Assembly: GCA_041664465.1 (NCBI GenBank)
Contig: JBAYKP010000003.1
Location: 19,405-83,404 of the forward strand
Length of the DNA stretch: 64,000 nt
DNA from: Minisyncoccota bacterium
GTDB taxonomy: Bacteria > Patescibacteriota > Minisyncoccia > Phycocordibacterales > UBA9973
Reading direction: 5' to 3'
The notes beneath the pieces are model-generated. The model had not been told where the DNA came from, did not search any database, and saw only the letters and a program-made list of their open reading frames with translations. A program made the translations under genes and the position numbers. Of this stretch, positions 43,142-63,804 are shown piece after piece; position 1 is the first letter of the stretch, and every line of letters begins with the position of its first letter.

Positions 43142-44623
43142 TTATTTTAAATTATATAATTCATCTATTATGTCTTCTTTGGTTTTTTTAAATTCTTTAA
43201 CTAATTTTGGTTCAATAATTTCATGAGCCTCATATTCTAAGGTAGAAGTGTCAGAATATTCTTTTAGCTGGGCTTCATCGTAACTTATTTTTTCTTTTCT
43301 TGATATGGAATCAGTTTTCAGGACATCTTTATTATTCCAAGCAAAATATTTTTCTGATTCAGGACCTTTAAATTGTACAGCATGACTTAATTCAGCTAAA
43401 TAATCTGATAATGAAAAATGACCAGTATAAGTTGGTAAATGCATAGTGTTGGCGTATTGATAATAGCAAGCCCTATCATGAAAATGAGGAGCTGTGCCGT
43501 ATTCTACTTTTGGTTTCCCATATTTTTCATTCATACGTAAAAGTACAATATAATTTAATTTATTTTCAAAATCTGGATCATTCATGGCTTCGTCTTTTTT
43601 GTTTTTATATTCCTCATATAAAGAGTTCATAAAAAATTCACTGCTATCTTCCTTCGCTAGGAATTCACGCCATTTTTGGGGTAATTCTTTATCTTGTGCA
43701 ATGTCATGGAGAATAATTTCAGTGACCGAGTCTAGGGGTGCAGCTTCTGCATATTTGTAGAGATTATCAATTTTAGATTTTACCTGTTCTCTTTTTATTT
43801 CATCTTTAGCTTTTTGTATTCCCCATGATAAAGCCAGCACAGAGAAGGTCAAAACGGTTGTTCTAATTGTCCATTTTTTGAATTGAGACGCTAATTCTTC
43901 CATTATAAATAGTTGTTTTGCTATTAGACTTTTACTCCCCTCCTGATCTTCTAGATTGAGATTTGTTATTTTATTTAATCTTTTTTTAAGATTGTTTTCT
44001 TTTATTCTTCTATATTTATTTATTTCCAATGAAAATTTATTTACTATTGTTTCAAACCAATCTTTATTTAAAGATTCATATTCTTCATAAATATTATTAA
44101 AATTATCACGTGCCGTAGAATATTTTTCCCAGAAGCCGCTTCTAGAGTCTGATGCCGCCATATATTTTTCACGCGTTAGTTTAATATCTTGAATTTCTTC
44201 AGGAAAATTCGAGATGAGATGTTTAAGGATGGTATAACTCTCATCATATTTATCTCTCTTCTTTTTATACTCTTGATATAACAAATCCAAACTGGGAGTT
44301 TCTACTATGTCTAATGGGTCCGCTTTAGGATTTTTTTCTTCTAACCTCGCTCTTTCATCATAGAAAATACTCCATAATTTATCCTTTTCTTGTTCTAGAA
44401 ACTTCATCGTTTGATATTCAGTAGGAAATTTGTTATATAGACTTTCTTGTTTGGAATTATATTGTTCATACAAAGAATCTTCTTCTTTGTTCAATTTATT
44501 CCACATTTCTCTAGTTTCTTTTCTTTGCCATTTAGAATAAAAATAGTCTACTTCAATTTGAAGTTTACTTTTTGGTGATTCTATTTCAGTTTCTTCTTTG
44601 GGGCTAGTTTCTCTCATTTTCAT
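43142..44623 (-). CDS. hypothetical protein with central TM helix, Glu/Lys-rich
   Basis: no recognisable family. Confidence 0.5.
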   Translation of the reverse strand: MKMRETSPKEETEIESPKSKLQIEVDYFYSKWQRKETREMWNKLNKEEDSLYEQYNSKQESLYNKFPTEYQTMKFLEQEKDKLWSIFYDERARLEEKNPKADPLDIVETPSLDLLYQEYKKKRDKYDESYTILKHLISNFPEEIQDIKLTREKYMAASDSRSGFWEKYSTARDNFNNIYEEYESLNKDWFETIVNKFSLEINKYRRIKENNLKKRLNKITNLNLEDQEGSKSLIAKQLFIMEELASQFKKWTIRTTVLTFSVLALSWGIQKAKDEIKREQVKSKIDNLYKYAEAAPLDSVTEIILHDIAQDKELPQKWREFLAKEDSSEFFMNSLYEEYKNKKDEAMNDPDFENKLNYIVLLRMNEKYGKPKVEYGTAPHFHDRACYYQYANTMHLPTYTGHFSLSDYLAELSHAVQFKGPESEKYFAWNNKDVLKTDSISRKEKISYDEAQLKEYSDTSTLEYEAHEIIEPKLVKEFKKTKEDIIDELYNLK

Positions 44624-45003
44624 TTTTTTGATTGATCTTTTTTATCTTTTAAATAAGTGTCAATTACTTTTTCGGCTTCAGTATAAACATCATCAATTTC
44701 CTGCAGGCAACTATTTTTAGCCTCAATCATCAATTTAAGGAACTTTCTTTTATTATCATCTTGGGCATTATTCATGATAAGCATTATACTATATAACCAG
44801 AATCTATTCATAGCTATTTGGGTTGGTTTAGTATGAAATATTGCAAAATCTGGGGTCTGTGTCCCTGTATATCCCTGTGTATAACTCGGTTGACTATCCC
44901 CGCCCAATGGGCTACCCTTATATGTAGAGCCTCCTAGAAAGGGGTTCGTTATACTGAAAGACAGGGATAGCCACATTTTGAAGGCTTGCCGAAATGACTG
45001 CAA
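44620..45003 (-). CDS. small hypothetical protein
   Basis: 127-aa ORF overlapping the upstream gene by 4 nt (operon-like). Confidence 0.35.
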   Translation of the reverse strand: MQSFRQAFKMWLSLSFSITNPFLGGSTYKGSPLGGDSQPSYTQGYTGTQTPDFAIFHTKPTQIAMNRFWLYSIMLIMNNAQDDNKRKFLKLMIEAKNSCLQEIDDVYTEAEKVIDTYLKDKKDQSKK

Positions 45004-46206: not shown

Positions 46207-46557
46207 ATGAAACAGCACACACTTGTTTTAATAATTTTAATTTTCATTGCAACGACTTCCTCAGTTGCTGTCTTGGCTTCTGAGGGTTATTTCAATAAGA
46301 AAAAAGCCGAGAGTAAAATATTATCTAAACAGGAGCAATCAGTTTCTAAACCAATAGCTCTCGCTTCAAATGCTATTTCAGTGCAAAAGCCAACGATTGC
46401 AAAATCTTCTACAACAGTCTCCAAAGCTCCAGTGAAAAAAGCCCCAGTCAAAAAAGTTGTTCCTAAGAAAAAAGTTGTTGCCAAAAAGAAATCCAAATTA
46501 AATCTCGCCCCTCCCGTCATCACCCCCGCCACCGCCCCGTATTCAGCAAAGAGATAA
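46207..46557 (+). CDS. secreted lysine-rich protein with KAPVKK/PKKKVVAKKK repeats
   Basis: signal peptide; Lys/Ala/Pro repeats. Confidence 0.45.
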   Translation: MKQHTLVLIILIFIATTSSVAVLASEGYFNKKKAESKILSKQEQSVSKPIALASNAISVQKPTIAKSSTTVSKAPVKKAPVKKVVPKKKVVAKKKSKLNLAPPVITPATAPYSAKR

Positions 46558-46571
46558 AAATAAAAACAACT

Positions 46572-46600
46572 AGCCCCGCCGGTAAACCGGCGGGGCTATC
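46572..46600. terminator. bidirectional terminator hairpin gccccgccgg-taaa-ccggcggggc between convergent genes
   Basis: perfect 10-bp GC stem read directly. Confidence 0.6.
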
Positions 46601-48256
46601 TTAATATATTTCTTGTTGATAACAAGATTCACAGTAGATAACTTCAGACCTATCTGGGGCGTAAGTAGTTTCAAATTCATTTGAACAACCAGGTTTCATA
46701 CAAGAACGATGATATAATTTCATTCCATTTCTTTTTTTCATTCTGTCTTCATGTCTGCATTCAAAATCTTTGTGAGGTAATGGCAACCCCATTTTTTTAT
46801 AGAAAGTTAATTCAGCTTCAACTATTTTGAAATTTTTATTACATTTTTCACAGATCAGAATTTCATCTAGAATCTTTTCATCGATATTATTTATAGAATT
46901 AGGTATCTCGCCTTTTTTAATCGTTTCTTTTCCAAAAGTTCCTGTAGTTTTCTCTTGCCACTCATATCCTCTTTTAGTAGCTTCTTCTTTTGTAAGTGGG
47001 AAGAAATCATGAATCAAGGATTCGTTGTATGCAAATGGTGCAACTTCGGGTGGGAAGAATTGTCCGAAATCTTTTTCTTTTTTCATTTGCTCATAAATTT
47101 TTTCTCTCAAGACTAAATATTCTTCTTTGGAGTACTCTTTATTAAAGATCATATTATTGCCTTTTCTAATAGAGATGCATCCTATGGCATTTGATAAATG
47201 GTGACAGTTGTCGCAATATTCAACCTCATTACAATAAAAAACAAAGGCAGAATTCTTGAGCTTACTCCCTTCGAGTGCTCCCATAATATTGTATCCGAAT
47301 TCTGGCTTATAGTAATAGTTATTACAATCCCAACTATCAGTTGGACTTTCTGTGTCCTTCATATAGGAACAGTTTTTAGCATCATAAGTATCAAAAAGCA
47401 TTACTCCCTCGTGGCAATTATGGAGATAGTCACCCGTTACATTATTGCATTTGGTTTGTGTAGAAAATTTTACAATAGTTTCCTTTTTTAATTTCTCGAA
47501 TTCTTTTTTTGTGTTTTCTATGCTCTCATAATTTTCTAAGATTTCTTTTTTCTTTTTATCAAATTCTTCCTTACTATACTTAATATTTAAAATCGCGTTA
47601 GACATATTCCTTCCATTTGTACACATAATGCAATTATTTGAATTTCGCATGTTATAACAGAACAATAAATCACTAGATGATTGGCATTTTTCACTAAACA
47701 TACATTTAAAACATTCACGACTATCTATACACTCGTAACATAATTCTGATTCATGGAGAAAAGCACAATCCATACATTGTTTATCTCTTTGTAGAAGTCT
47801 CCCATATAAACAGTCTTCATTATAATCAGATGCGAAAATAAGATAGCAATCTTTATTTTCAGCTGAGCCATTTGTATAATCGCTCCTGACATTCTGAATA
47901 GCGACAAGCCCAAGCCTTGGGACTTTCGCTTGTAGTTCTTTGTATTGTTCAAAAAATGATTTAGAAAAATCATAATCTTGCGCATAATCTTTCGGATTCC
48001 ATTCATCACTCCACCAACATTTACTACAATAAACTTTGTATGGAGCATCAGGCGTATAAAGTGTAATCATATTTTCTTTGCACAAGTCACACGGTCTTTT
48101 ATATAAAATTCTCTCATTGCGGAACATCAAACGTCTCGCCATTCGACATTCCGGGCAGTAAATAGGAGGAACAGTCTTCATCTGCTCATAAAACACAAGA
48201 TCTTCATCTCTTATCTCAAATTCTTTCTCACAAGTTTTGCATATTTCTTTTGTCAT
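46601..48256 (-). CDS. cysteine-rich hypothetical protein with internally duplicated zinc-ribbon-like terminal domains
   Basis: N-terminal CKTCEKEF..DLVFY..M...CPECRM and C-terminal CEKCNKNF..ELTFY.KM.....CRHEDRM repeat each other; more than 40 Cys, many CxxC pairs. Confidence 0.5.
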   Translation of the reverse strand: MTKEICKTCEKEFEIRDEDLVFYEQMKTVPPIYCPECRMARRLMFRNERILYKRPCDLCKENMITLYTPDAPYKVYCSKCWWSDEWNPKDYAQDYDFSKSFFEQYKELQAKVPRLGLVAIQNVRSDYTNGSAENKDCYLIFASDYNEDCLYGRLLQRDKQCMDCAFLHESELCYECIDSRECFKCMFSEKCQSSSDLLFCYNMRNSNNCIMCTNGRNMSNAILNIKYSKEEFDKKKKEILENYESIENTKKEFEKLKKETIVKFSTQTKCNNVTGDYLHNCHEGVMLFDTYDAKNCSYMKDTESPTDSWDCNNYYYKPEFGYNIMGALEGSKLKNSAFVFYCNEVEYCDNCHHLSNAIGCISIRKGNNMIFNKEYSKEEYLVLREKIYEQMKKEKDFGQFFPPEVAPFAYNESLIHDFFPLTKEEATKRGYEWQEKTTGTFGKETIKKGEIPNSINNIDEKILDEILICEKCNKNFKIVEAELTFYKKMGLPLPHKDFECRHEDRMKKRNGMKLYHRSCMKPGCSNEFETTYAPDRSEVIYCESCYQQEIY

Positions 48257-48342
48257 ATATTTATTTAATCACATTTATAATAATACACTTTTTATTAACT
48301 TTATAAAACAAAGGAGCATGGCCCCTTTGTTCTAAAAATTAA

Positions 48343-48897
48343 TTAATTTTTAGATTTTTTAAAGCCTTTGAATACAAAATAAAGAGAAATAATTTGTAAT
48401 GCTACAAATATCCATTTATTTTGTATTGTCATTAAAATTCCCATACTGACATTCATAACTGCAAAAAATAACCATCCCTTCCCATTTCTTTTTGCAAGTA
48501 AATATGTACCTGCTAGATATCCGATGGTGACTCCACATTCAAGAATTTGTGTTAGTAAAATTGTTCCATGACTTTCGTATATACTGTACACGATCCCAAT
48601 AATTATTAACATCCAAACAAAAATCTTGACTACCGTATCTATTCTGGGCGAATAATTATGTTTTTGAGTAGTTACAATAATTCCAAGAATCATTGATGGA
48701 GCACCTCCCAATTCAATTGTCATAGCAATCCAATTATGGTTTTGTTCTAAAACAATAATCCAAGCTGGTATTCCAATTAAATATGCTAACCACCCAATTC
48801 TGCGCCACTTAGAATTTTCTTTTCCTTCAGCATTTGAAAGGAAAATTTTTGCAAGGAGATAAAAAATACCTCCCCATAATTGCAATACAATGTTCAT
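48343..48897 (-). CDS. polytopic membrane protein (possibly PnuC-like transporter); start at MNIVLQLW preceded by a GGAGG RBS
   Basis: 5-6 TM helices; rc AGGAGGTAAAAATG at 48897-48911 (one of the few clear SD sites). Confidence 0.4.
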   Translation of the reverse strand: MNIVLQLWGGIFYLLAKIFLSNAEGKENSKWRRIGWLAYLIGIPAWIIVLEQNHNWIAMTIELGGAPSMILGIIVTTQKHNYSPRIDTVVKIFVWMLIIIGIVYSIYESHGTILLTQILECGVTIGYLAGTYLLAKRNGKGWLFFAVMNVSMGILMTIQNKWIFVALQIISLYFVFKGFKKSKN

Positions 48898-49087
48898 TTT
48901 TACCTCCTCTTTTTTGTTTTGAGTAACAGTACTCATTAATAATATAAAAAATAAAAATTTATTTGTCAAGTAATTTAAACAATAAAGACTTAAAATATAC
49001 CTATAATACATACTTAAAATTAAGCATTACATATTCTGTTCGCAGGTATTGACAAAATATGGGGCTTTAATATATACTTAGAATACT

Positions 49088-49861
49088 ATGAATGAAAATT
49101 TAGATATAAAGAAAAGTCTCGAATATATAGGCTTCTCCGAGAAGGAAGTTGTGGTGTATTTGGCATTACTTTCTTTGGGGAAAGGGACTGTCACAGAGAT
49201 ATCAAGAAAGGCTGGAATCAATCGCCCGACTGGGTATCATGTGCTCGCTTCCCTATCAACCAAAGAGCTAGTGAAGGTCTCTGGCAAAGAACCAAAGCAA
49301 GAATATGTAGCCGAATCTCCAGACCAAATAGAGAAACTTTTGCAAGATAAAATAGAAGAAGATCAAAAGTTTATAAATGAAGCAAGGAAGATTATTCCTG
49401 AACTTAAATCTATACACAATGTAGCAGATAGACCAAAAGTATTTTTCTATGAAGGAGTTGAAGGATTAAAGAAAGTTTACGAGGATACTCTCACCTCTCA
49501 TGAAGCTATAAGAGCTTATGCTACGGTTGATGATATGCATGAAGGCATACCACATTATTTCCCAGAGTATTATAAGCGACGTGCAGGGGCAGGTATTGCT
49601 ATTCGTGCAATAACTCCAAAGACAGAAATTGGTATTGAAAGAAGAAGTCATGATGCCGAAGAGAAAAGAGAAATGGCTTTTGTCCCAAAAGATAAATACT
49701 ACTTTTCTCCAGAAATAAATATTTATGATAATAAAGTTATGATAGCTTCTTGGCGAGAGAAGCTCGGCATCATTATAGAAAGTGCCGAAATTGCCGACGC
49801 GATGAAAAAGATATATGAACTCTCTTGGTCCGAAGCTAAGAGGTTGGATAAAGAAATTTAA
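49088..49861 (+). CDS. TrmB-family transcriptional regulator
   Basis: N-terminal wHTH (VVYLALLSLGKGTVTEISRKAGINRPTGYHVL) plus C-terminal TrmB-like domain. Confidence 0.65.
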   Translation: MNENLDIKKSLEYIGFSEKEVVVYLALLSLGKGTVTEISRKAGINRPTGYHVLASLSTKELVKVSGKEPKQEYVAESPDQIEKLLQDKIEEDQKFINEARKIIPELKSIHNVADRPKVFFYEGVEGLKKVYEDTLTSHEAIRAYATVDDMHEGIPHYFPEYYKRRAGAGIAIRAITPKTEIGIERRSHDAEEKREMAFVPKDKYYFSPEINIYDNKVMIASWREKLGIIIESAEIADAMKKIYELSWSEAKRLDKEI

Positions 49862-49909: not shown

Positions 49910-50191
49910 TCATTTTTTATTTTGTATATCATCAATCATTTCTTTGGCAGAAGAAAATCTTTTACCATGTTTGATAGCATACTGTGCTTCTTTCTCATAT
50001 TCTTTTAGCATTTCGGGAGTATATTTATGCATAAAACCAAAAGGGCATATATAGGTAGTGTTATTTGGGCTACTTACTTGATTTAAAAGATATTTAATTC
50101 CAGATGATAAATCTAGGCCCATATTTTTAAAAGCTTTTTGAGCTTTTGATTTTGTTGTCTGGTCTATTCTTATTTGTATTGTTGTATTCAT
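49910..50191 (-). CDS. RelB/DinJ-family antitoxin-like protein (orphan)
   Basis: TIQIRIDQTTKSKAQKAFKNMGLDLSSGIKYLL matches the DinJ ribbon-helix-helix N-terminus; no cognate toxin adjacent. Confidence 0.5.
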   Translation of the reverse strand: MNTTIQIRIDQTTKSKAQKAFKNMGLDLSSGIKYLLNQVSSPNNTTYICPFGFMHKYTPEMLKEYEKEAQYAIKHGKRFSSAKEMIDDIQNKK

Positions 50192-50233: not shown

Positions 50234-51802
50234 TTAACTTTCTCTCGGTCTATATTGAAGAGCTTCTAAAATATGAGATTGAGAGATATCAACACTGCCT
50301 TCTAGGTCGGCAATGGTGCGGGCGAGCTTGATGGTGCGGTGGTAGGCACGAGCGGAGAGTTGCAGACGTTCAGCACTTTGATTTAGAAGTTTCTTGGTCT
50401 CATTATCGAGCGGTGCATAAATATTTAATTCTTTCACATTCATCTCGCTGTTCGTATTTATTTTCCTTGGAGAATTTTTAAATCTTTTTGTTTGTATTTC
50501 GCGAGCATTCTTTACTCTCTCTTTTATTGTATTCGTTTTCTCTCCTTCTTGTCCTATGGAGGAAAGCTTTTCATAATCTACATTCCCCACTATTACCCAG
50601 ATATCTATACGATCCATTATAGGTCCGGAAAGTTTCCTTTTATATCTATCTAGGTCGCCTTGTTTACAAATACAATCCTTCTGCTTATTGCCTTTATTGC
50701 CACAAGGGCAAGGATTCATAGCAGCAACGAGGATAAAGTTGGAAGGAAATATTGCCGAGCCCTTGGCACGAGAAATAGAAACGATGTTGTCTTCAAGTGG
50801 CTGGCGTAGTGACTCTAAAACTTTCTTTTCAAATTCTGGAAATTCATCAAGGAAAAGTACTCCTCGGTGAGCCAAAGTTACTTCGCCAGGTTTAGGATTG
50901 ACTCCGCCACCAATCATAGAGACGTAGCTTGCAGTATGATGTGGGGCTCGAAATGGTGGATCAGTAATGATGGCATCTTCTAGAAGTCCTACCACAGAAT
51001 GTATACCTGTAATTTCTAAGCAATCATCTTTCTCTAGATCAGGAAGTATTTGCGAGAAGACTCGGGCTAGCATTGTCTTGCCCGTTCCTGGAGGACCTGA
51101 CATTGCGATATTGTGCCCACCACTCGCTGCAATTTCAAGCCCTCTCTTGGCTCCTTCTTGACCTTTGATATCAGAGAAGTCGATATTGTTTTCTTTTTCT
51201 TTGTGAATAATTTCTGTCTTAGGTTGAGGAATTATTTTTGGTCTTTCTGGTTCAAGCAAATTTCCTTTCCTATCTTTTTTTGATATATAAATGTGGTCTA
51301 TCACTTCTTTCAAATTCTTCACACCATATATAGTGATGCCATCTACTAAGGCGGCTTCGGAGGCATTGTCTATCGGCAAGAATATTTCTTTGTATCCAAG
51401 CTTCTTGGCTTCTTGTGTAAGAGGCAATGCTCCTTTTATTGGCCTCAATTCTCCATTTAAAGAAAGTTCTCCTAGGAATATTCGCCCTTCGGGGTCAAAC
51501 TTTATTTCTTCTGCTGAAAGTAAGTATGCAAGTGCAATAGCTAAGTCAAAATATGGTCCTTCTTTCTTAAGGTCTGCTGGAGATAGAGAAATAACGACTT
51601 TCTGATTTTGATTCTTGGGGGATTCAAAGCCTGAATTTTTCAAAGCCGAGCTCATTCTATCTTTTGATTCATCGACGGCCTTATCGGGAAGTCCAACCAA
51701 CGTAAAAGAATGCAAAGTTTTCTTTGTAATGTCTACTTCTACTGTGACAATCTTGCCTTTTAGGAGATGTGTTTGTGCAGAATATATTCTTGAAAACGAC
51801 AT
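50234..51802 (-). CDS. comM: YifB/ComM family Mg-chelatase-like AAA+ ATPase
   Basis: Lon-like N-terminal domain, Walker A GPPGTGKTM, Walker B, C-terminal Mg-chelatase domain. Confidence 0.85.
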   Translation of the reverse strand: MSFSRIYSAQTHLLKGKIVTVEVDITKKTLHSFTLVGLPDKAVDESKDRMSSALKNSGFESPKNQNQKVVISLSPADLKKEGPYFDLAIALAYLLSAEEIKFDPEGRIFLGELSLNGELRPIKGALPLTQEAKKLGYKEIFLPIDNASEAALVDGITIYGVKNLKEVIDHIYISKKDRKGNLLEPERPKIIPQPKTEIIHKEKENNIDFSDIKGQEGAKRGLEIAASGGHNIAMSGPPGTGKTMLARVFSQILPDLEKDDCLEITGIHSVVGLLEDAIITDPPFRAPHHTASYVSMIGGGVNPKPGEVTLAHRGVLFLDEFPEFEKKVLESLRQPLEDNIVSISRAKGSAIFPSNFILVAAMNPCPCGNKGNKQKDCICKQGDLDRYKRKLSGPIMDRIDIWVIVGNVDYEKLSSIGQEGEKTNTIKERVKNAREIQTKRFKNSPRKINTNSEMNVKELNIYAPLDNETKKLLNQSAERLQLSARAYHRTIKLARTIADLEGSVDISQSHILEALQYRPRES

Positions 51803-51839: not shown

Positions 51840-52202
51840 CTAAACAACTTTCTCCATACAAGACATACAAGTTTTCGCACTTGGATTCACTTCTAATCTT
51901 TCTTCTTCTATTTTATTGTGGCAGATTTCACATACCCCATATGTCCCAATCTCTATCTTGGATAACGCACTTTGTATATCATTTAATCTAGATTCTAATG
52001 CAGAAAGAGTACTTGATTTCTCCTCATAATCTTCGGCTCTATCTGCCAAGTCTCCTTCATCAGGTACATCTTGAGTACTGACTTCACTTTCAGGGGTAGC
52101 TTCCCAGTCGCCTGTCTCATCCTTCTTGCCGAGTGAGGCTAGCTCTTCTTCCAATAACTTTTTCTCTTCTTCTAATTTTGTTTTATGTGTATTTGTGTTC
52201 AT
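51840..52202 (-). CDS. dksA: DksA/TraR-family C4 zinc-finger protein
   Basis: C-terminal CEICHNKI...CMSCM zinc finger; coiled-coil N-terminus. Confidence 0.6.
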   Translation of the reverse strand: MNTNTHKTKLEEEKKLLEEELASLGKKDETGDWEATPESEVSTQDVPDEGDLADRAEDYEEKSSTLSALESRLNDIQSALSKIEIGTYGVCEICHNKIEEERLEVNPSAKTCMSCMEKVV

Positions 52203-62634: not shown

Positions 62635-62705
62635 TGCGGGGTAGGAGAATCGGACTCCTGTCTCATCCTTGGCAAGGACGTGTTCTACCACTAAACCAAC
62701 CCCGC
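62635..62705 (-). tRNA. tRNA-Gly (anticodon GCC), no encoded CCA; 23 nt upstream of cca on the same strand
   Basis: manually folded cloverleaf: acceptor GCGGGGT/ACCCCGC, anticodon loop TTGCCAA, T-arm AGGAG-TCCGATT-CTCCT. Confidence 0.75.
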
Positions 62706-62830
62706 ATATTATTTATAACTAGTTGCTATTATAATATTTTTAATGACTAAATGCAATTGATTTTTAGCTTTGGTAAATAAAGACATTTTGTAAAGAATTA
62801 GAAATGATGTATAATATAAATGTAGTATTT

Positions 62831-62902
62831 GCACCCGTAGTGAAATGGATATCATACCCGCCTTCGAAGCGGTCGTTCCAAGTTCGACTCTTGGCGGGTG
62901 CA
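62831..62902 (+). tRNA. tRNA-Arg (anticodon TCG), no encoded CCA
   Basis: acceptor GCACCCG/CGGGTGC, anticodon loop CTTCGAA, T-arm CCAAG-TTCGACT-CTTGG. Confidence 0.75.
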
Positions 62903-63128
62903 CAAATATCTAATGATTTGCCCTTTATTAGTCTTTTATGCACGGAAAAATCCCTTAGGAATTAAGATTTATGTGTATAACTATGTGAGCATTGTTTATA
63001 AAAGACAAGTTATATACTATGTTACGTCTATCAGTTTTTCAAATTTTTAAAGATAATACTGTTATATTATAAGTATATTTATGAAGGACAAGATTATAAA
63101 ATAGATTTTATGTCCAATATATAGATAA

Positions 63129-63563
63129 GTGTTTCACGTGGCACACTTTATGAAGAATTTTACTTCAAATTCTCAAAAGATAGGAGAGTTGGGCGAGGAT
63201 GTCGCTTGTAAGTTTCTCATGAAACACGATTTTTCTATATTAGAAAGGAATTATACTAAGAAATGGGGGGAGATAGATATAATAGCCCAAAAAGGGGATA
63301 AGAGGTATTTCATAGAAGTGAAATCGAAAAGTGTATCCTCTTTAGATTTTGCTACGGGCTTTAATGAGGATGGGAAAGAGACCAATAGACCCGAAGAGAA
63401 TATGCACCCTTGGAAGATGAGGAGACTTCGAAGGATAGTGGAGACTTACTTGATAAGCAAGAGGCTAGGATATGTAGACTGGCAGTTTGACTTACTAGTT
63501 GTGTATTTAGATATTGACCACAGAAAGGCAAGAGTGAAAGTAGTAGAGAATATAATATTGTGA
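63129..63563 (+). CDS. yraN: YraN/UPF0102-family predicted endonuclease
   Basis: GELGEDVACKFL...ILERNY...GEIDIIA...FIEVKSK matches the YraN PD-(D/E)xK signature. Confidence 0.65.
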   Translation: MFHVAHFMKNFTSNSQKIGELGEDVACKFLMKHDFSILERNYTKKWGEIDIIAQKGDKRYFIEVKSKSVSSLDFATGFNEDGKETNRPEENMHPWKMRRLRRIVETYLISKRLGYVDWQFDLLVVYLDIDHRKARVKVVENIIL

Positions 63564-63567
63564 TTTG

Positions 63568-63638
63568 TGCGGGATAAGGGAGTCGAACCCTTCACCACAG
63601 TTTGGAAAACTGTTATTTTACCGATAAACTAATCCCGC
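63568..63638 (-). tRNA. tRNA-Gly (anticodon TCC), no encoded CCA
   Basis: acceptor GCGGGAT/ATCCCGC, anticodon arm ACAGT-TTTCCAA-ACTGT, T-arm AAGGG-TTCGACT-CCCTT. Confidence 0.75.
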
Positions 63639-63731
63639 AAATGTTTTATCAATATACACTATTTTAAATATTTATTCAACAAGAAATAAAATTGTAATTA
63701 TTACAAAATATGCTAATATAAGGGAGTTATA

Positions 63732-63804
63732 TCGGGGTGTAGTATATCGGTAGTATCCATGTTTTGGGAACATGAGGGCCGGGTTCGATTCCCGGCACCC
63801 CGAC
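63732..63804 (+). tRNA. tRNA-Pro (anticodon TGG), no encoded CCA
   Basis: acceptor TCGGGGT/ACCCCGA, anticodon arm CATGT-TTTGGGA-ACATG, T-arm CCGGG-TTCGATT-CCCGG. Confidence 0.75.

Follow-up and report, generated by a model that had tools for sequence, protein, structure and literature searches.

What kind of protein carries 35 cysteines and nine histidines in 551 residues, and what are these cysteines for? The question is raised by a gene on the minus strand (46601..48256) of a 64,000-nucleotide stretch of a Minisyncoccota bacterium genome (GenBank assembly GCA_041664465.1, contig JBAYKP010000003.1, positions 19,405 to 83,404), to which we refer as the window. The gene product is 100% identical to WCW54_01750, an NCBI protein from a metagenome-assembled genome (MAG) of Candidatus Paceibacterota that is annotated as 'hypothetical protein'. 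A preliminary description of this DNA had proposed the 551-residue open reading frame (ORF), which the ORF listing bears out, and had called its product Cys-rich, with more than 40 Cys in CxxC, CxC and CxxxxC clusters. The enrichment is indeed far above chance, Cys accounting for 6.4% of residues (35/551) compared to 0.55% in the other 50 window ORFs (binomial P ~2e-25), but the count of more than 40 was too high. The close pairs comprise ten CxxC, one Cx4C (519/524) and one Cx5C (342/348); the protein contains no CxC.

A first answer comes from the internal symmetry of the protein. Its N-terminal (residues 5-81) and C-terminal (468-546) segments are 37% identical over 79 residues (E 4e-16), and the profiles of the two terminal modules align in hhalign with a probability of 99.8% (E 5e-30, 81 columns), in agreement with the homologous terminal repeats that had been proposed. 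The interior Cys-rich regions, ~119-240 and 263-392, are mutually homologous as well, both ending in '...GCxGLRxKxYCIxNKxYSKEEY', and the two solenoids that they form in the structural model align with a probability of 99.9% (E 1.9e-36, 118 columns); a control alignment of zinc module against solenoid reached 0.9%. As both the terminal modules and the interior regions are homologous pairs, the domain order can be written A-B-hairpin-B'-segment-A'. AlphaFold2 (AF2), when supplied with 142 diverse representatives of the family, modelled the protein with a predicted local distance difference test (pLDDT) of 88.8 and a predicted TM-score (pTM) of 0.90; with 47 close homologues (at least 69% identity), pLDDT was 57 overall and below 50 in the centre. 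No transmembrane segment or signal peptide was found in the window protein (maximum KD19 0.60; family median 0.90). It is well supported that the gene encodes a soluble cytoplasmic protein with two internal duplications, about four zinc sites and two beta-solenoids, an overall architecture that is novel, although it is built from known fold types. The gene and the parts of its product are as follows:

46601..48256, minus strand: complete coding sequence, 551 amino acids plus stop, from the ORF listing; subfamily C of a family restricted to the candidate phyla radiation (CPR)
47981..48256, minus strand: predicted N-terminal double zinc module, residues 1-92; pLDDT 92-97 in the site-1 finger, 92-96 in the remainder
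47903..47980, minus strand: linker with a helix, residues 93-118; conserved F101, Q104, L108 and P113, helix 101-111 in the model
47591..47902, minus strand: predicted beta-solenoid 1, residues 119-222; net acidic, ~12 residues per coil, 12 Cys in a single three-residue register
47471..47590, minus strand: cap motif ILNIKYSKEEF and Lys/Glu-rich helical hairpin, residues 223-262; helices 229-239 and 243-258, pLDDT 95-98
47141..47470, minus strand: predicted beta-solenoid 2, residues 263-372; homologous to solenoid 1, net charge -4, ending in the motif GCISIRKGNNMIFNKEYSKEEY
46862..47140, minus strand: helix (residues 373-395), conserved segment (396-436) and variable linker (437-465); pLDDT 93-98
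46604..46861, minus strand: predicted C-terminal double zinc module, residues 466-551; homologous to the N-terminal module

The cap motif, in which N224 is nearly invariant, repeats after solenoid 2. The net charge is -5 and -4 in the solenoids and -11 in the whole protein (family median -6); that of the C-terminal zinc module is positive (+2 in the window protein; family median +6).

The terminal modules each contain two sets of putative metal ligands. Conservation and co-variation were assessed in an alignment of 142 relatives (50%-cluster representatives), to which such values refer unless subfamily C is named. N-terminal site 1, a treble-clef-like CxxC-x24-CxxC arrangement of C6, C9, C34 and C37, is 94-100% conserved, and N-terminal site 2 is formed by C56, C59, C77 and C80 (CxxC-x17-CxxC), of which C59, C77 and C80 are jointly present in 87 and jointly absent in 55 sequences (phi 1.00). 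In the C-terminal module, site 2 (C519/C524/C542/C545, Cx4C-x17-CxxC) is 99% conserved. C-terminal site 1 combines C469, C472 and C500 with D497, a position occupied by Cys in 72% and by His in 19% of the relatives, and C472, C497 and C500 co-vary with phi 0.80-0.95. With Asp at 497, where most relatives have Cys, this site is read as Cys3 plus Asp or His; D497 itself is a candidate for the fourth ligand, as are H495 and H502, both conserved within subfamily C. Since the terminal Cys are kept or lost in an all-or-none fashion, we regard them as sets of metal ligands.

Known zinc-finger profiles point in the same direction. PF13451 (zf_Tbcl) matches residues 4-42 of the window protein with 16.8 bits (E 0.0066), below its gathering cutoff of 24, and 9/20 relatives match it at E <= 0.01, with a best value of 8.5e-8; for some close relatives, a PF13451 label has been precomputed. 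In the model, a beta-hairpin (strands 2-5 and 12-15) carries C6-x2-C9, and C34-x2-C37 is placed at the N-terminus of helix 35-43, as expected of a zf_Tbcl knuckle. The CxxC-x17-CxxC spacing of TIGR04272 and PF23477 (zf_Tbcl_2) is reproduced exactly by C56/C59/C77/C80 and, as a Cx4C variant, by C519/C524/C542/C545. The window protein itself scores only 9.2 bits against PF23477 (cutoff 27) and does not match TIGR04272 (cutoff 36 bits), while 6/20 relatives match TIGR04272 (best E 1.4e-4) and 5/20 match PF23477 (best E 1.5e-5), and some subfamily-A proteins carry a precomputed PF23477 label. Together with the joint retention or loss of the terminal Cys, these matches in relatives support the earlier suggestion of zinc-ribbon-like ends. 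For the CxxC-x17-CxxC small proteins A00184 and A01980 of Methanosarcina mazei, zinc binding has been measured by inductively coupled plasma mass spectrometry (PMC12704099). The likeness to these groups thus consists of the site 2 ribbon spacing in both modules and of site 1 aligning to zf_Tbcl; they are, however, domains or small proteins of ~40 residues, whereas here four sites, in two tandem pairs, flank a core of 370 residues that no model covers. LIM domains (CRP1/CRP2/MLP) likewise use paired zinc sites, one directly after the other, as a module for protein interaction, but the similarity of CRP LIM profiles to C-terminal site 2 is not significant (E 0.005-0.05), and LIM domains are eukaryotic and differ in ligand spacing and in their use of His.

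The interior cysteines behave quite differently from the terminal ones. The window protein has 20 of them, and all 12 in solenoid 1 fall into the same register of every third residue. This inner register is composed of C/S/A/V/I/L/T/G to 90% and of Cys to 38%, whereas the other two registers are rich in polar residues and contain 0-1% Cys. Across the relatives, interior positions hold Cys in 21-93% of sequences, alternating with Ser, Val, Ile and Leu; pairs of them are nearly independent, no phi exceeding 0.39, and their co-occurrence is strongest between positions 12 residues apart (mean phi 0.15) and turns negative for positions 6 apart (mean phi -0.12). Solenoid 1 has between 3 and 20 inner-register Cys per protein, and family members contain 26 to 50 Cys in all, with a median of 38. 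As they are independent of each other, exchange with Ser, Val, Ile and Leu, and share one three-residue register within a 12-residue coil, the interior Cys look like core-packing residues of a narrow solenoid rather than cluster ligands.

It had been considered possible that the dense interior Cys mark a metal-cluster or redox protein, and a role in metal binding, Fe-S cluster formation or metal storage, or as a thiol buffer or Hsp33-type oxidation sensor, has some points in its favour: the sheer number of Cys, here and in the family; the invariance or near-invariance of the interior Cys within subfamily C; the heat-shock operon context of paralogues, described below, which would suit a stress sensor; and the presence of ZIP zinc transporter genes within a few kb in several subfamily-C loci. 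The family-wide pattern does not bear this out. A conserved, co-varying interior set, as expected of an Fe-S, metallothionein or redox centre, was not found among the 142 relatives, where neither quartets nor pairs co-vary, Cys across the core are anti-correlated, and the solenoid 1 count takes almost any value between its extremes; the interchange with Ser and aliphatic residues argues in the same sense. The invariance within subfamily C says little, because the whole protein is 75% conserved there, and Pfam and NCBIfam contain no matching Fe-S type motif or family. We therefore consider such a role improbable, and pairing within the solenoid core, by disulfides or by metal, was rejected on the same co-variation values.

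For the solenoids, a structural analogy can be drawn with the antifreeze beta-helices of Tenebrio molitor (PDB 1EZG) and spruce budworm (1M8N). In the Tenebrio protein, the inward-pointing residues of a coil are C2, S5, C8 and A11, a geometry like that of the family solenoid, which likewise has a 12-residue coil with small inward residues at every third position. Insect antifreeze proteins are secreted and form disulfides across the core between Cys i and i+6. The family, by contrast, is cytoplasmic according to its lack of signal peptides and transmembrane segments, its Cys at separation 6 are anti-correlated, and Pfam and PDB sequence searches revealed no homology, so the fold is analogous and does not imply family membership. 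Neither a hexapeptide-, pentapeptide- or curlin-repeat signature nor a significant fold match was obtained with Pfam and Foldseek, and Foldseek searches of the model against PDB and BFVD returned nothing significant; curli CsgA and left-handed beta-helix (LbH) proteins (LpxA/LpxD/GlmU, gamma-carbonic anhydrase) appeared with insignificant scores only (E at least 0.07, TM-score ~0.08). They also differ from the family in coil length, and the family lacks the amyloid or acyltransferase context of these proteins.

Enzymes are common among beta-helix proteins, the LbH acyltransferases and gamma-carbonic anhydrases being examples. Both of these are among the weak fold matches. An active site could be imagined in the segment 396-436, packed on the solenoids and contributing S406, Y410-N411-E412 and W433. 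With the family consensus FFPxxxSPFxYNETxA..FPLTKEEA..G..W, this segment has the lowest column entropy of all regions (1.74) and contains invariant polar residues, Y410, N411 and E412 being at least 90% conserved, and the rate at which subfamily C evolves is as low as that of core enzymes. Nevertheless, Pfam, NCBIfam and PDB searches uncovered no similarity to catalytic families, and dozens of deeply diverged paralogues per clade would be unusual for a single housekeeping enzyme; we consider catalysis quite improbable.

How widespread is this architecture? A word-indexed search returned at least 3,597 relatives, the top 120 of which are full-length and 69-100% identical; where the source is named, they are all 'hypothetical protein' entries from Paceibacterota or Patescibacteria MAGs. 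In a profile search of 1.84 billion representatives clustered at 50% identity, at least 4,114 clusters were found at E <= 1e-3 and 1,749 at E <= 1e-30, and nearly all of the best 150 cluster representatives measure 540-600 residues and match end to end. Scanning one genome per GTDB species confirmed at least 578 loci, of which 80 were kept; these belong to Paceibacteria, Nomura-, Staskawicz-, Jorgensen-, Lipton-, Sungii-, Harrison-, Abawaca-, Peregrini- and Peribacteria. Many loci labelled 'uncultured Candidatus Saccharibacteria (binchicken)' show Paceibacteria-type synteny, and such labels may be generic. Two loci labelled as Burkholderiales (L031, JAMPXW010000001.1, a 277-kb contig) and Ignavibacteria (L053) were rejected as evidence for members outside the CPR: both have a GC content of 30-31% and the former has CPR-type neighbours, which makes binning errors the most likely explanation. 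The family is thus very large, unnamed and confined to Patescibacteria (CPR).

The expectation that the protein cannot be assigned to a family was correct. Pfam yielded sub-threshold treble-clef matches only, with no curated family spanning the protein, NCBIfam had no match, and searching PDB sequences with the single protein or with the 142-sequence profile produced only non-significant LIM-like matches; hidden Markov model (HMM) searches, which might have identified a well-known family, did not do so, since none covers the protein. Our full-text literature searches found no paper describing the family. Among six family proteins, PADLOC and PHROGs gave nothing above threshold, and the weak matches were inconsistent. 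A PADLOC match to NsnC (18.6 bits) was treated as compositional because it occurred in 1/6 proteins and lies on the Lys/Glu-rich hairpin. Matches to phrog_15341, a phage family of 276 positions with no assigned function, were found in 3/6 proteins (E 3e-4 to 8e-3) and span the solenoid and hairpin region (residues 158-315 of the window protein, and the relatives P0123 and P0200); they could be compositional as well or reflect a distant phage solenoid relative. Given these weak matches, and with no tblastn match in 50,697 GenBank phage records and none in IMG/VR, a phage, mobile-element or anti-phage defence origin was rejected.

The genomic context of the paralogues, counted over 82 loci, offers a view of possible partners. 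In 50/82 loci, 2-8 co-directional copies were counted in a region reaching 6 kb to each side of the query match. As several arrays extend beyond the fetched region, there may be up to 8 or more. Copies within a locus (median identity 40%, maximum 63%) are about as divergent as copies between genomes (38%), and the 51 subfamilies defined at 45% identity recur in orders such as J-A-F and J-A-D-F, so that the tandem copies, judged by their sequences, appear to be ancient. In several Paceibacteria-type genomes, two to four family paralogues lie between grpE and dnaK, with a winged helix-turn-helix (wHTH) gene just before dnaK and an ATPase gene after it; the recurrent order is L13, S9, GrpE, two to four family genes, a PaaX-like wHTH gene on the opposite strand, DnaK, a VirD4-like ATPase, in some cases another family gene, and DnaJ. 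This interrupted grpE-dnaK-dnaJ operon is seen in L015, L018, L019, L026, L037, L042, L082, L084 and L085 (e.g. L082:7727-20628), the last three being independent metagenome contigs, obtained with a subfamily-A query, in which the unlabelled genes proved to be family members (E 1e-155 to 1e-233). The grpE gene of L082 and L085 shares ~20 nt with the first family gene, which suggests that the two are co-transcribed. The subfamily-A copy of L083 (L083:11758-20222), flanked by further family copies on both sides, adjoins CutA1 and type IV pilus genes (T2SSE ATPase, T2SSF, N_methyl pilins) rather than the dnaK operon.

DnaJ, with its CxxCxGxG zinc-finger domain, and Hsp33, with a Cys4 zinc redox switch, are zinc-dependent chaperone components and as such functional analogues of a family whose paralogues, also of the Cys4-zinc type by prediction, are encoded between grpE and dnaK. 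However, the family protein matches neither DnaJ_CXXCXGXG nor HSP33 in Pfam and has no J-domain, and the link consists of the gene context of paralogues.

VirD4/HerA-like ATPase genes were found in 17/82 loci, often directly upstream of a family gene, while by a rough estimate that ignores phylogeny ~2-3% of 12-14 kb windows would be expected to contain one, CPR genomes having ~2 VirD4-like (t4cp) genes each (PMC12102498). Long forms of these ATPases (L018:10396-12711, L020:7703-9703, L063:3908-5995, L082:16858-18837, L084:18701-20716 and L085:16310-18430) have, in their C-terminal part, a TIGR04272/PF23477 ribbon with a score above cutoff, followed by a conserved 'YD.SKF.KPLADLGIEF' motif and a long, Pro-rich and apparently disordered tail. 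The family zinc-module HMMs recognise this ribbon at site 2, and the motif 'P.RP.VYC..C' is common to both; a short-query homology search with the ATPase ribbon returned two proteins only. A shorter form of ~480-520 residues, without the ribbon, precedes dnaJ. The VirD4/TraD-like ATPases match mad8/HerA weakly in PADLOC and score 44-56 bits against NCBIfam models, far under the cutoffs of 250-650. Of 18 ATPases of at least 480 residues, 17 lack a transmembrane segment (maximum KD19 0.95-1.39), and Walker A is located at residues 35-71 in 16. With Walker A this close to the N-terminus and no transmembrane segment, they are not canonical membrane-anchored coupling proteins; the N-terminal anchor and virB4 linkage typical of type IV coupling proteins were not found for the ATPase partner of the paralogues. 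Of 5,713 CPR VirD4 homologues, 148 are near virB4, and the authors of that survey already suspected an exaptation of CPR t4cp genes to other roles (PMC12102498).

These ATPases bear on two further explanations. One is that family proteins are secreted cargo or effectors, recruited by a VirD4 homologue and exported into the host by way of a type IV secretion system (T4SS), which is widespread in Patescibacteria (PMC12102498), the arrays being an effector repertoire. The repeated adjacency to VirD4-like genes, the lack of a Sec signal peptide, as expected of T4SS substrates, and the large diversified arrays in episymbionts with tiny genomes would all agree with this. The ATPases, however, lack the membrane anchor of true coupling proteins, the proportion of homologues near virB4 is small, and in Ca. 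S. epibionticum ML1, t4cp was reported not to be essential for epibiotic growth, in contrast to other genes of the T4SS (PMC12102498). Moreover, the paralogues are ancient and conserved, with subfamily C evolving as slowly as PNPase, unlike effectors in an arms race; the C-terminal end is predicted to be a folded zinc site without a disordered tail; and a protein with four zinc sites and two solenoids would be hard to unfold. Export as cargo is therefore very improbable, and it is this role and the metal or redox one that our data disfavour most.

The other explanation, raised as a possibility in the preliminary description and unlikely but with more to commend it, is that the protein is a putative nucleic-acid binder, either gripping RNA or DNA with its Arg-rich terminal zinc modules or mimicking nucleic acid with its acidic solenoids. 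R38, R42, R46, N47, R501 and R505 are invariant or nearly so, the basic C-terminal module is set against acidic solenoids, the ATPase partner is of the FtsK/HerA/VirD4 type, a class that typically handles DNA, and transcription-related roles have been proposed for CxxC-x17-CxxC proteins (PMC12704099). Subfamily C genes also have neighbours in RNA metabolism (PNPase, S15, CCA-adding enzyme, NYN), but these amount to ordinary conserved synteny. The net charge of the whole protein is negative, the conserved Arg could be structural salt bridges, and Pfam, NCBIfam and PDB searches detected no similarity to a known DNA- or RNA-binding family.

Our preferred reading is that the protein is a zinc-stabilised binding or adaptor scaffold, to which, structure and function taken together, we assign a probability of roughly 0.45; the functional part we infer. 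The terminal zinc modules, three sites being Cys4 and one Cys3 plus Asp or His, would clamp a pair of acidic beta-solenoids. A docking function common to all members might be supplied by the conserved zinc modules and the segment 396-436, and the variable solenoid surfaces and the hairpin might determine which partner each ancient paralogue binds. The likeliest partners would be the DnaK/GrpE/DnaJ system, the soluble VirD4-like ATPase of presumed hexameric type with its CxxC-x17-CxxC tail ribbon, or both. A more far-reaching version, in which the family, the ribbon-tailed soluble ATPase and DnaK/GrpE/DnaJ constitute a CPR-specific machine for proteostasis or macromolecule handling, with the paralogues as substrate adaptors or hetero-oligomeric subunits that dock via their zinc modules, is conceivable, although we hold it with little confidence.

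Several observations weigh against the scaffold. The contrast in column entropy between the supposedly variable parts (2.3-2.75 in solenoids, hairpin and linker) and the supposedly common ones (1.7-2.0 in the zinc modules and the segment 396-436) is modest, pLDDT in the solenoids is only 60-87, and we infer zinc binding by the window protein from the all-or-none co-variation of its ligands. The copy in the window does not adjoin dnaK, grpE or an ATPase gene, so that the evidence from context comes from paralogues at ~40% identity. Furthermore, the order grpE-family genes-dnaK may represent one ancestral insertion inherited within a single Paceibacteria clade instead of repeated selection, and our searches found no homologue of known function for any activity.

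What, then, surrounds the gene in the window itself? Three flanking features were identified:

46571..46598, minus strand: intrinsic terminator between convergent genes; 12-bp stem with 10 G-C pairs, dG -27.3 kcal/mol, z -5.5, U-rich tail
48280..48307, minus strand: promoter-like site TTTATA-16-TATTAT, 24 nt upstream of the ATG; 9/12 matches in a consensus scan, weak evidence
49088..49861, plus strand: divergent TrmB-family regulator (Pfam TrmB, E 6e-16), a recurrent neighbour of family genes

As the preliminary description had noted, the gene converges across the strong terminator with a Lys-rich ORF for a putative secreted protein (46207..46557, plus strand; 116 residues), which has a signal-peptide-like N-terminus, VKKAPVKK-type repeats and no Pfam match. 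The 86 nt upstream of the Cys-rich gene hold a small hairpin that trails the preceding gene and, downstream of it, the promoter-like site, the region not being enriched for such sites relative to shuffled sequence. With the hairpin at its 3' end, and this upstream gap with a hairpin and a weak promoter-like site, the gene is probably a transcription unit of its own. The most persistent neighbour is the TrmB-like gene, which flanks family genes in 10/82 loci as well as in the P0058 locus. It lies divergent and directly upstream, with small ORFs in between, in the loci inspected, and persists beside other subfamilies too; it is a candidate regulator of the adjacent family gene and may control the window copy.

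The other neighbours of the window copy, encoding a LysM/M23 peptidase, a PnuC-like membrane protein, a RelB-like protein, ComM/YifB, DksA/TraR and PNPase, recur in related genomes as ordinary synteny; being unrelated or plain synteny, they were rejected as a basis for an operon function. The multi-pass membrane ORF at 48343-49011 (minus strand) has a sub-threshold match to the PnuC family (E 5.7e-4, 20.3 bits; cutoff 27.3); its 222-residue call probably starts too early, an internal Met giving 184 residues, and it is followed by the small hairpin and the Cys-rich gene. Further along on the minus strand are a RelB-antitoxin-like ORF for which no obvious toxin partner is listed (49910-50191), a ComM/YifB Mg-chelatase-like ATPase (50234-51802) and a DksA/TraR C4 zinc-finger protein (51840-52202), the second most Cys-rich window ORF (3.3%). 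On the other side, the minus strand carries a 493-residue Lys/Glu-rich ORF (43142-44623) and an overlapping 127-residue ORF with a TTG start (44620-45003), neither with a Pfam match. Four tRNA genes, two per strand, are clustered at 62635-63803 (Rfam, 58-65 bits).

Comparisons of such conserved neighbourhoods show how the gene itself has evolved. Subfamily C proteins share 70-72% identity between genomes whose PNPase and ComM are 61% and 67% identical, respectively; the subfamily is thus slowly evolving and under strong constraint. One locus (L038:6001-7710) has the same synteny as the window (PNPase-c25-DksA-ComM-...-family gene-M23) and flanking genes at 75-82% identity, yet the family member there reaches no more than 41% identity to the window copy, which suggests that a paralogue has taken over the slot, or that gene conversion or transfer has occurred at a fixed locus. 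The pattern is repeated in L064, where TrmB is 77% and the family members are 40% identical.

The genomes of Patescibacteria are among the smallest of bacteria, yet in many of them a 550-residue protein, which databases name or model no further than its ~40-residue zinc fingers, is present in tandem arrays of 2 to 8 or more copies. What is new here is, on the one hand, the predicted architecture, in which pairs of zinc fingers clamp two antifreeze-like beta-solenoids, together with a rule for its cysteines, by which the terminal ones would serve as ligands and the interior ones in core packing; and, on the other hand, the recurrent genomic partnership of family arrays with the grpE-dnaK operon and with soluble VirD4-like ATPases that share the ribbon. 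This partnership makes a published question testable, namely what role the roughly two orphan coupling-protein genes per CPR genome play. If the link holds, it would point to chaperone or translocation biology peculiar to this lineage, a major branch of bacteria that is largely uncultivated, and if family, ATPase and chaperones do form one machine, this would be a previously unrecognised system that occupies up to ~14 kb of genomes of ~1 Mb and would explain their 'orphan' coupling-protein genes.

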